Notes under the pieces: generated by a model
The model's input: the letters and a program-made list of their open reading frames with translations, nothing else
The model's database searches: none
Told to the model about the DNA's origin: nothing
In this document: positions 12,905-58,331 of the stretch, piece by piece
How the letters are laid out: every line of letters begins with the position of its first letter
Position numbering within the stretch: the stretch's first letter is position 1
Translations under genes and position numbers: made by a program
Assembly: GCA_048884965.1 (NCBI GenBank)
Contig: JBHLQH010000012.1
Coordinates: 28,428 to 92,427, forward strand
Reading direction: 5' to 3'
From: Candidatus Thorarchaeota archaeon
GTDB lineage: Archaea > Asgardarchaeota > Thorarchaeia > Thorarchaeales > Thorarchaeaceae
DNA length: 64,000 nt

Positions 12905-12949
12905 TCTGTGAAAAATAAGATAGATAGGCAATCCGAATCGGACTGCCTA
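12905..12949 (-). terminator. Stem-loop plus T-rich tract after SSB copy 1
   Basis: Minus strand taggcagtccga-t-tcggattgccta, followed by tctatcttattttt. Confidence 0.6.
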
Positions 12950-12975
12950 ATTATATTCTGTGTACCTAGTGTTGA

Positions 12976-13518
12976 CTAGTACCTTCGACCGCCGCTGCGT
13001 CGGTCTCTGCCGCCGCCACCACCGCCGCCATAGCCTCGATCACGATCTCGTCCGCCGCCGCCGTATCCGCCACCGCCACCGCCACCGCCGTAGCTACTAC
13101 GACCGCCGCCACCACCGCCACCACCGTAGCTTCGGCGTCTGGTGTCTTCGTGCTCAACAGCTGACATGTCATTATCGGTCTTTACATCTTCAATGGCTGT
13201 TTCAGCTGCACTGAGTTCACCGTATTTTCCAACGTTAAGTCTCAAATTACCTCTAAACAATCCAGTGTATCCATTCTTGAGTAAGTAGCTCTCGCCAACC
13301 TCAACACTATCGATGTGGTCATCCCATAGTGGTACAGCAACTGTACCAGTTGAATCACCAACTACTGCATCTAGTACTCTATGTGAAGCTCCGTCATTTC
13401 TTGAAGATACTTCACGCTCTTCACCTAGTTCGATCACCTTGAAGGAAATGACCAGGTTTTTCATCTGTGGCTTCAATTCAGCCACTGTAGCCTCAATAGG
13501 CTCTCTGTCGTAACTCAT
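12976..13518 (-). CDS. ssb: Single OB-fold SSB-like protein with Gly/Arg/Tyr-rich (RGG-like) tail, copy 1
   Basis: VAELKP...VGDSTG.V...LWD...NGYTGLFRGNLRLNVGKYG (crenarchaeal-type SSB OB fold); tail YGGGGGGG/RDRDRG. Alternative GTG start at 13527. Confidence 0.85.
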   Translation of the reverse strand: MSYDREPIEATVAELKPQMKNLVISFKVIELGEEREVSSRNDGASHRVLDAVVGDSTGTVAVPLWDDHIDSVEVGESYLLKNGYTGLFRGNLRLNVGKYGELSAAETAIEDVKTDNDMSAVEHEDTRRRSYGGGGGGGGRSSYGGGGGGGGYGGGGRDRDRGYGGGGGGGRDRRSGGRRY

Positions 13519-13686
13519 TTGTATCACTCACTTATGCCAAAGCATAATTGATTACAGGGCGTCAAAAAATAAGCGGGTTCATCTGGGGAGGTGCGAAACG
13601 GTGCGTAACCAATCACGAACTCTTTCTGAGAAAACGCGTCTTGCTTGTGTTTCCTGTAGCCTATTCTCCAAATCATACCCTTATAG
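13519..13686 (-). promoter_or_regulatory. Promoter and conserved structured 5' leader of SSB copy 1
   Basis: Aligns by eye almost colinearly with 57513-57679. TATAAG box; outer helix tacagg/cctgta; hairpin ttatgc-tttg-gcataa next to the RBS. Confidence 0.75.
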
Positions 13687-13806
13687 TACTGTGCATTGAG
13701 CTTTTTTCTGAAGATTGAGAAGGCATGCCCCTCCTCCATGAAATGCTAGCGAACCTTGATCTCCTTGAGGAGGGACTTGTCTCTTATGACATCCTATGCC
13801 TATCTC

Positions 13807-56572: not shown

Positions 56573-57496
56573 ATGGTTATGGACCTACTTGATAAGAAAA
56601 TCTTGACCGAACTGACAAAGAACTGCAGGATGACATATCAAGAACTTAGTGACAAAGTAGGATATACACCAAATGCCATCCGAAAACGAGTGGACAAGCT
56701 CATTGAAAATGGCACTCTCTATTCTTTCACATTGCGACCTACTTTGAATTCTATGAACGCGAATATCGCACTGACACTTATAGAAACTGATGGTAGTGAA
56801 TCACCCAATGAATTCATTGATTCCCTTGGAACGAATGAGATGGTCGGAGAAGTCAATCCTATCGTCACCAAGGATCACGGTTTCTATCTTGTGCTATCAG
56901 ATTACGTTGGGGCTAACGGGATTTTTGATCTTGGTGGGTTCTTCAGAAGGCTAGACAATGTCATTACTGTAGAGATGCATCCGGTTATGACACAACCTAT
57001 CTATCATGGAAGGAAAGTGGAATTCCAGCCATTGGAGCTTAGTGTGATGAAGCATCTCTACGCAGATGCTCGAATGTCCATAAGAAACCTGACTGAAATA
57101 GCAAATATGTCTGCAAGAAGGATACGCAAGATACTTCTGAACCTTCAAGAAAGCGGTGGCATCTCGTTCTCTATCAGATGGAATACTGCAGCAGCAGGCT
57201 CTATTAGATTCTTCCTCGCCTTTCGTTATGATGTCAAGACATTAGAGCTACAGAAGGTCATCTCATGGCTGGAAGAGAACTACGAAAGAGAGTTCTGGCT
57301 CTATTGGATATCCACAAGTGAACCTCTTGTCTTTGCGAGCTTCACTGTCGAATCCATTGCACAGGCTAGAAGGATTTCAATAGATGTCCGCGCAGAATCA
57401 CCCTTTTCGTCAGTGAGAACTTGGATTTGCTACCCACCAAGAAAATTCAAGACTTATCCTGAAACATGGTTTGAGAAACTCCTTTTTAAGGAGTAA
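56573..57496 (+). CDS. Lrp/AsnC-family regulator with tandem wHTH domains
   Basis: MDLLDKKIL..L..NCRMTYQELS..VG...NAIRKRV; ADARMSI. Confidence 0.88.
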   Translation: MVMDLLDKKILTELTKNCRMTYQELSDKVGYTPNAIRKRVDKLIENGTLYSFTLRPTLNSMNANIALTLIETDGSESPNEFIDSLGTNEMVGEVNPIVTKDHGFYLVLSDYVGANGIFDLGGFFRRLDNVITVEMHPVMTQPIYHGRKVEFQPLELSVMKHLYADARMSIRNLTEIANMSARRIRKILLNLQESGGISFSIRWNTAAAGSIRFFLAFRYDVKTLELQKVISWLEENYEREFWLYWISTSEPLVFASFTVESIAQARRISIDVRAESPFSSVRTWICYPPRKFKTYPETWFEKLLFKE

Positions 57497-57512
57497 TTCC
57501 AAATACATATGC

Positions 57513-57679
57513 CTATAAGGGTATGATATGCAAAAAAAACTTGCAGGACATCAAGCAGGATGCGCCTTATCAGAAAGAGATTCGTGATTGGTTACAGACC
57601 GTTTCGCACCTCCCCGATGGATACGCTACTTTTGAACGACCTGCAATCAATTATGCCTCGGCATAAGTGAGTGATACAA
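57513..57679 (+). promoter_or_regulatory. Promoter and conserved structured 5' leader of SSB copy 2
   Basis: TATAAG at 57514; outer helix ttgcagg (57541-47) / cctgcaa (57640-46); hairpin ttatgc-ctcg-gcataa (57651-66); colinear with 13519-13686. Confidence 0.75.
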
Positions 57680-58273
57680 ATGAGTTACGATAGAGAGCCT
57701 GTAGAGGCCCAGGTGGCTGATCTAAAGCCACGCATGAAGAATCTTGTAATCACCTTCAAGGTTCTTGAGATCGGTGAAGAACGCGAAGTATCTTCCCGAA
57801 ACGACGGAGCAACCCACAGAGTATTAGATGCCATTGTCGGAGATGCGACAGGTACAGTTGCAGTCCCATGCTGGGATGACACTATTGACATGCTTGAAGT
57901 AGGAAAGACCTTCACCCTGAAGAACGGGTACACTGGTCTTTTCAGAGGAAACCTTCGACTTAACATCGGTAAGTACGGAGAACTCTCAGAAGCTGAGACA
58001 CCCATCGAAGAAGTCAACATGGAGAACGACATGTCGGCTGAAGAACACGAGGACACCCGACGCTCATATAGAGGTGGCGGCGGTGGTGGCCGAGGTGGCG
58101 GTGGATACCGAAGCGGTGGCGGCGGTGGAGATCGTGGCTACGGTGGCGGTGGCGGCGGATACGGCGGCGGCGGACGAGACCGTGACCGAGGTTATGGTGG
58201 CGGCGGCGGTGGCGGCGGCAGAGACCGACGTGATCGTGGCGGTGGACGCGGTGGCGGCGGAAGACGCTACTAG
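57680..58273 (+). CDS. ssb: Single OB-fold SSB-like protein with RGG-rich tail, copy 2
   Basis: Near-identical OB fold to 12976-13518 (KNGYTGLFRGNLRLN.GKYGELS) with a longer Gly/Arg tail. Alternative GTG start at 57671. Confidence 0.85.
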   Translation: MSYDREPVEAQVADLKPRMKNLVITFKVLEIGEEREVSSRNDGATHRVLDAIVGDATGTVAVPCWDDTIDMLEVGKTFTLKNGYTGLFRGNLRLNIGKYGELSEAETPIEEVNMENDMSAEEHEDTRRSYRGGGGGGRGGGGYRSGGGGGDRGYGGGGGGYGGGGRDRDRGYGGGGGGGGRDRRDRGGGRGGGGRRY

Positions 58274-58301: not shown

Positions 58302-58331
58302 ATCGGGTTGCATTTCTGCGACCCGATTTTT
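58302..58331 (+). terminator. Stem-loop plus T tract after SSB copy 2
   Basis: atcgggttgca-tttc-tgcgacccgat followed by tttt. Confidence 0.75.

Follow-up and report, generated by a model that had tools for sequence, protein, structure and literature searches.

How are the several Ssb-like genes of a Thorarchaeota genome regulated, and do the sequences directly in front of them take part as RNA? The question is raised by a stretch of 64,000 nucleotides (nt) from a Candidatus Thorarchaeota archaeon (contig JBHLQH010000012.1 of assembly GCA_048884965.1), hereafter the window, in which two paralogous genes for Ssb-like proteins with an OB fold, copy 1 on the minus strand and copy 2 on the plus strand, are preceded by closely similar leaders. 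A sequence-only reading of the window had proposed that these leaders represent an undescribed archaeal cis-regulatory RNA, either an autoregulatory site, a cspA-like thermosensor or a riboswitch. Part of this proposal stands, in that we find a conserved, partly structured, sense-strand leader that is specific to the SSB-like paralogues and has no Rfam match, whereas a riboswitch is unlikely and the core of the leader is not thermodynamically stable. On comparative-sequence grounds, the leader constitutes a so far uncatalogued family of RNAs whose general kind is known, namely a cis-acting mRNA leader of Thorarchaeota Ssb-like genes. As in structured cis-regulatory leaders in general, it lies 5′ of a coding sequence (with a predicted transcription start), is conserved above the neutral level and contains covarying base pairs.

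The two loci are similar from the TATA box ctataagggtatgat (57513; 13686 on the minus strand) to the ATG (57680; 13518), and the sequence blocks that had been named as shared are indeed identical in both copies in our alignment. The two leaders are identical in 117 of 141 aligned columns (83%) and differ by four indels of 1 nt each. Synonymous positions have diverged more, as had been claimed: identity between the same two loci is 47% at the four-fold degenerate sites of the OB domain (20/43) and 48% at third codon positions, and it is 39% in the 100 nt 5′ of the TATA box. Open reading frames (ORFs) of 47 and 36 amino acids occur in the leader of copy 2 and were considered as upstream ORFs, but they were ruled out, because copy 1 is without the ATG and the 1-nt indels between the leaders mean that no upstream ORF is conserved. 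Among 52 homologues, mean pairwise identity is 0.57 for the leader, compared with 0.44 for third codon positions, 0.39 for four-fold sites, 0.31 for the spacer between the TATA box and the start, and 0.27 for the region far upstream, which places the constraint on the transcribed leader and not on its neighbourhood. Leader identity is therefore clearly higher than synonymous-site identity both family-wide and in the window, the opposite of what had been named as a possible refutation.

These comparisons bear on the possibility that the leader has no function at the RNA level and is a residue of duplication or gene conversion, or a promoter-proximal site acting as DNA. Promoter and leader are inherited along with the gene, and the inner fold is weak, both of which would suit such an explanation. 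It is nevertheless barely credible, considering that leader identity is far above synonymous-site identity and that the leader spans three or more paralogue classes and ten genera, that the spacer just 5′ of it is unconserved, and that its closing helix, P1, has three positions that are free of mismatches in 52 independent sequences, G-U pairs among them.

The distribution of the leader was followed with covariance models, the first of which (R1) was built from 14 copies found by BLASTN in three genera and the second (R2) from the R1 matches. R1 has matches in 27 of 86 genomes of the taxonomic family and R2 in 18 of 26 sampled family genomes; outside the family, R2 was run on 124 genomes that represent 26 further families of the phylum, with zero matches. 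In the 86 family genomes, each of the 56 true model matches stops exactly at the start codon of a gene for an Ssb-like OB protein, and the leader-bearing genes include one with a GTG start. In a metagenome set of 80 loci, which were retrieved via the protein and are independent of model training, 65 have the leader, each terminating exactly at the ATG. Most members of the protein family bear Gly/Arg tails; tail-less paralogues of ~130 amino acids, with only ~55% protein identity, also have the leader, which therefore predates the diversification of the family. The source genome contains four leader copies, two of them in the window; the third (G000:C85:5390-5524, plus strand) stands before a short tail-less paralogue, and the fourth, on contig C10 (read as L077:1876-2005, minus strand), is divergent (26.8 bits) and stands before a third long paralogue. 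Before the paralogue on contig C11 (46% identical), which has a different upstream region, the leader was not found even with filters off. Tandem arrays of two leader-plus-gene units, the units ~700-800 bp apart, were observed in several family genomes (loci L053, L058, L059 and L062). Homologues are labelled Candidatus Thorarchaeota in the database; a wider range, by way of homologues labelled 'Sifarchaeia' or 'Promethearchaeota', was rejected, because the leaders of these homologues look like those found in a genus belonging to the same family. Rfam gave no match at the gathering threshold in the window, nor at E ≤ 10 in 57480-57720.

A small-molecule riboswitch would be compatible with the conserved internal loops between covarying helices and with the variable distal stem. 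However, all ~121 occurrences of the element are located before genes of one family, which is non-metabolic, and this exclusive tie, together with the lack of a multi-helix junction and of an Rfam match, makes a riboswitch very improbable.

In the usual archaeal promoter, the TATA box is centred near -26/-27 and initiation takes place at a purine that follows a pyrimidine. In 97 of 99 distinct leader units, a distance of 26-28 nt separates the TAAG of the TATA-like box from the CAGG in P1, a pyrimidine-purine (Y-R) dinucleotide directly precedes CAGG in 98 of the 99, and sequence conservation picks up again at this point, after the variable spacer. Since the fixed TATA spacing and the Y-R step fit the usual geometry, the probable start of the transcript is the R in RCAGG (57543; 13657), the first base of the P1 closing helix, in agreement with the earlier remark that the helix begins where a transcription start would be expected. 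Nearly every unit with a leader also has a AATGCACA-like motif 4-5 nt 5′ of its TATA box. The 4.1-Mb genome contains the extended pattern of this motif 4 times, and 3 of these occurrences are at ssb paralogues, suggesting either an unusual promoter element or a site for a dedicated transcription factor.

The leader is ~137 nt long, and single-sequence minimum free energy (MFE) folds of very divergent homologues mostly share one architecture, in which P1 closes a long irregular stem (P2a, P2b, P2c and P3) that carries a variable distal hairpin (P4), and a separate hairpin (P5) follows P1 directly 5′ of a Shine-Dalgarno (SD)-like GAG(U/A)GAU. The two helices already noticed in the window were recovered as P1, with the compensatory change tGcagg/cctgCa in copy 2 versus tAcagg/cctgTa in copy 1, and as P5, the hairpin adjacent to the ribosome-binding site, with a constant stem (ttatgc/gcataa) and a loop that is ctcg in copy 2 and tttg in copy 1. 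In the larger alignments, covariation is borne out for P1, P5 and the inner helices P2c and P3, whereas the rest of the inner fold is weak. P1 is 93-94% paired in two sequence sets, with GC/AU/GU exchanges; P5 is 96-97% paired, has a stem that differs by clade (UUAUGC/GCAUAA, UCGC/GCGA, AUAC/GUAU, CUC/GAG) and reaches a mean z of -3.0 against dinucleotide shuffles; and in P3 all three pairs change on both sides (GAG/CUC, UGG/CCA, GGA/UCC, GUGG/CCAC). Column-based pairing is 53% for P2a and 72-84% for P2b, and P4, although it appears in the MFE folds of most homologues with differing sequences, has a column support of 43-76%; the weakness of these three is partly explained by the difficulty of aligning their regions.

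Taking all helices together, paired cells amount to 81% in the genome set and 78% in the metagenome set, against 37-49% with slid partners, and both partners have changed in 24-25 pairs, compared with no more than 15 after sliding; none of 500 shuffles attained the observed pairing values, which should be read with the bias of covariance-model alignments towards the supplied structure in mind. The many G-U pairs point to the sense strand. When the genome set was scanned for mutual information, a P5 pair and a P1 pair took the top 2 places among ~9000 column pairs; in the noisier metagenome set, structure pairs come no higher than ranks 20 and 39 of 8479. The folding energy of the whole leader is unexceptional (z of -1.06 and +0.55 for the two window leaders). 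We read the leader as a well-supported frame of P1, P2c, P3 and P5 around sequence-conserved, loosely structured loops.

Such a frame might also serve as a constitutive 5′ stabiliser or translation enhancer, in which P1 and the rod would block 5′-end-dependent decay, P5 would keep the initiation region open, and nothing would be sensed. That P1 is predicted to contain the first transcribed base, that P1 and P5 are the best-supported helices and that the SD is not consistently masked are all in line with this role, but a terminal helix would suffice for it, and the ~100 nt of loop and strand sequence kept across deep paralogues would be left unexplained. No other highly expressed gene bears the element, and we regard pure stabilisation as fairly unlikely.

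The conserved sequence within the frame could alternatively belong to a transcription attenuator or a leader-derived small RNA, if the U tract ~90 nt past the start ended part of the transcripts and read-through were modulated, for example, by the chaperone. The string UAGUUUUGA is among the most conserved of the leader and the tract reaches U5-U7 in 24 of 108 leaders; moreover, archaeal termination depends on U tracts (PMC8716108) and, when assayed in E. coli, SisSSB has anti-termination activity (PMC10684826). In 79 of the 108 distinct leaders, however, the tract is only U4, a weak signal, and it doubles as the 3′ strand of P2a, itself tentative, which renders attenuation quite unlikely.

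An RNA thermosensor like the cspA 5′ untranslated region (UTR), whose temperature-dependent alternative folds would alter the translation or stability of the chaperone mRNA, is suggested by the similar length of the two leaders, the analogous gene (an OB-fold RNA chaperone), the marginal overall stability and the fact that the Saccharolobus homologue rises in the cold by a mechanism that is unknown (PMC10684826). The short-form leaders of tail-less paralogues (such as L070:991-1125) also contain a competing 6-bp local hairpin, GCAUAG-CAA-CUAUGC, a rival to the long-range P2 pairing, and the competition between the two may, in predicted folds, create a two-state region. Nevertheless, there is no match to cspA in Rfam, predicted accessibility of the SD and AUG climbs smoothly with temperature, as does that of the rest of the RNA, and no conserved pair of mutually exclusive helices has been demonstrated, so that a thermosensor is unlikely.

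The element appears to extend into the gene. The SD-like GAG(U/A)GAU (GUGAU in the window) is presumably a match to the archaeal anti-SD. For same-residue pairs, the identity of third positions reaches 0.67-0.71 across the first ~20 codons, versus about 0.40 further in, and this raised synonymous conservation implies that the functional element probably includes the translation initiation region, with constraint reaching ~60 nt into the coding sequence (CDS). Two candidate hairpins in the coding region of copy 2 (57697-57708 and 57713-57731) are predicted by MFE in most homologues; their covariation is modest, competing pairing is present, and RNAalifold recovered neither. In copy 2, GUGAU (57671-57675) can pair with GUUAC of codons 2-3 (57684-57688, plus strand), leaving the AUG in an 8-nt loop, and this SD-masking mini-hairpin was rejected as a general feature because it is confined to the window's own clade. 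A possible anti-SD sequence, CACCUCC, in the window copies was likewise rejected, being absent from other clades as a conserved string and not pairing with the SD.

What, then, might the leader do? Given that its linkage to one family of nucleic-acid-binding proteins is exclusive and ancient, a shared operator fits best. The family's own products, which bind RNA or single-stranded DNA, or a dedicated partner, would bind this operator and thereby set translation initiation and/or mRNA lifetime, and the result would be feedback and cross-regulation of dosage among the paralogues. The constraint on early codons is as expected if the initiation region belongs to such an operator. There is precedent for autogenous control of this type in T4 gp32, an SSB that represses its own mRNA via a leader operator (PMC535899), and the dosage of the archaeal protein matters: in Saccharolobus, the homologous protein is an RNA chaperone and cold-shock protein of unknown regulation, of which two-fold overexpression slows the cell cycle and overexpression at a high level is lethal (PMC10684826). 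We consider feedback control by the family's own proteins to be the most likely mechanism, if a little short of an even chance. In a broader and still tentative form, the proposal is that this family of OB-fold/RGG chaperones may sense its own pooled concentration, or temperature, via the leader and adjust translation.

Several observations weigh against feedback through a structured operator. The loops of the leader are conserved in sequence, though SSB-type OB folds usually bind without sequence specificity, and the SD is not clearly masked across clades by the conserved fold. P2a, P2b and P4 are poorly supported, as described above. The conserved core (from P2c to P2c) is no stabler than shuffles (mean z -0.26, with -1.0 for the rod), swapping 5′ and 3′ halves between divergent homologues gives -23.9 kcal/mol compared with -24.7 kcal/mol for native leaders (p = 0.15, not significant), and RNAalifold on a plain MAFFT alignment finds P1 alone in the leader.

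The features of both loci are listed in Table 1. Both window proteins pass the curated threshold of PF21473 (Ssb-like OB fold; Pfam cut-off 24 bits), paralogue 2 with 53.7 bits (E 2.4e-14) and paralogue 1 with 49.0 bits (E 7e-13); their OB domains are 80% identical, and the closest solved structures are those of Sulfolobus SSB and human SOSS-B1 (PDB 1O7I, 7WCG, SOSS-B1). The genes upstream of the two copies are unrelated, as are the sequences there. Just past each stop codon, a G+C-rich hairpin is followed by a T run (58302-58331, plus strand; about 12927-12955, minus strand), so that each gene looks monocistronic. A 307-amino-acid protein with two Lrp/AsnC-type helix-turn-helix regions is encoded at 56573-57496 (plus strand), its end lying 17 nt short of the copy 2 TATA box; the other leader copies lack this neighbour.

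Table 1. Positions of leader, promoter and gene features at the two window loci (w/, paired with).
Feature	Position	Strand	Basis or remark
Leader, copy 1	13519..13658	-	covariance model R2 score 131 bits; fold from MFE
P1, copy 1	13658-13653 w/ 13558-13553	-	MFE fold
P2b, copy 1	13637-13635 w/ 13575-13573	-	MFE fold
P3, copy 1	13622-13620 w/ 13590-13588	-	MFE fold
P4, copy 1	13616-13593	-	MFE fold
P5, copy 1	13551-13528	-	MFE fold
SD-like site, copy 1	13527-13523	-	directly after P5
TATA-like box CTATAAGGG, copy 1	13678..13686	-	promoter alignment
Promoter-upstream motif AATGCACA, copy 1	13690..13697	-	fixed position 5′ of TATA
Paralogue 1 CDS	12976..13518	-	180 amino acids; Gly/Arg/Tyr-rich tail
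Promoter-upstream motif AATACATA (consensus AATGCACA), copy 2	57502..57509	+	fixed position 5′ of TATA
TATA-like box CTATAAGG, copy 2	57513..57520	+	TAAG-to-CAGG spacing
Predicted transcription start (R of Y-R step), copy 2	57543	+	promoter geometry
P1 5′ strand UGCAGG, copy 2	57542..57547	+	pairs with 57640-57645
P2a/P2b 5′ strand (UCAAG..AG...GCG), copy 2, tentative	57551..57564	+	single-sequence MFE folds
P2c 5′ strand, copy 2	57567..57571	+	pairs with 57616-57620; 90-94% paired
P3 5′ strand GAG, copy 2	57577..57579	+	pairs with CUC 57610-57612; 86-89% paired
P4 variable distal hairpin, copy 2	57584..57607	+	lower stem GUGA/UCGC, upper UGGUU/GACCG
3′ strands of P3, P2c, P2b, P2a, P1, copy 2	57610..57645	+	U4 tract 57630-57633 within
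P5 hairpin by ribosome-binding site, copy 2	57647..57670	+	UCA.UUAUGC-CUCG-GCAUAA.UGA
SD-like GUGAU, copy 2	57671..57675	+	GAG(U/A)GAU conserved 4-8 nt 5′ of AUG
Raised synonymous conservation, first ~20 codons, copy 2	57680..57740	+	third-position identity
Paralogue 2 CDS	57680..58273	+	197 amino acids; Ssb-like OB fold and Gly/Arg/Tyr tail

Few structured cis-regulatory mRNA leaders are known from archaea, and in Rfam and the papers searched we found none described for Asgard archaea. The Thorarchaeota leader exists in more than 100 natural variants, is clearly associated with one kind of gene and has a defined promoter, which makes the question of regulation directly testable. If the proposed function is true, no mRNA leader responsive to protein or temperature would have been described in Asgard archaea before this one; the leader would be the functional counterpart, in archaea, of the cspA system of bacteria, and the question of how SSB-type cold-shock chaperones are regulated in archaea would have its answer.

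Among known systems, the autoregulatory leaders of ribosomal proteins (e.g., PMC7247131) are also family-specific structured leaders that emerged from comparative genomics and are bound by the encoded protein, but the Thorarchaeota gene is non-ribosomal and has no known natural RNA target for the leader to mimic. In archaea, L7Ae provides an example of an RNA-binding protein regulated via its own 5′ leader structure, a k-turn (PMC5539422, PMC6298567). The Thorarchaeota element is far larger, and no k-turn (3-nt bulge plus tandem sheared G-A) was seen in the internal loops of alignments A4 and A8, inspected by eye only. The T4 gene 32 operator (PMC535899) is closer with regard to the gene, since an SSB gene is again preceded by a structured element and then the initiation region, and it offers the precedent for autogenous repression. 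It differs in that no pseudoknot is seen in the Thorarchaeota leader, whose loops are conserved in sequence and whose initiation region is not unusually unstructured or A/U-rich (predicted unpaired probability 0.42-0.50, about the same as for the whole leader RNA), and the two are evolutionarily unrelated. Finally, the 5′ UTRs of E. coli cspA, cspB, cspG and cspI show no match in sequence or structure, and the Thorarchaeota leader differs in its archaeal host and its OB family (PF21473); in both systems, however, a long leader (~140-160 nt in E. coli) with conserved boxes in the leader and near the start codon is placed on several paralogous genes for small OB-fold chaperones in one genome.
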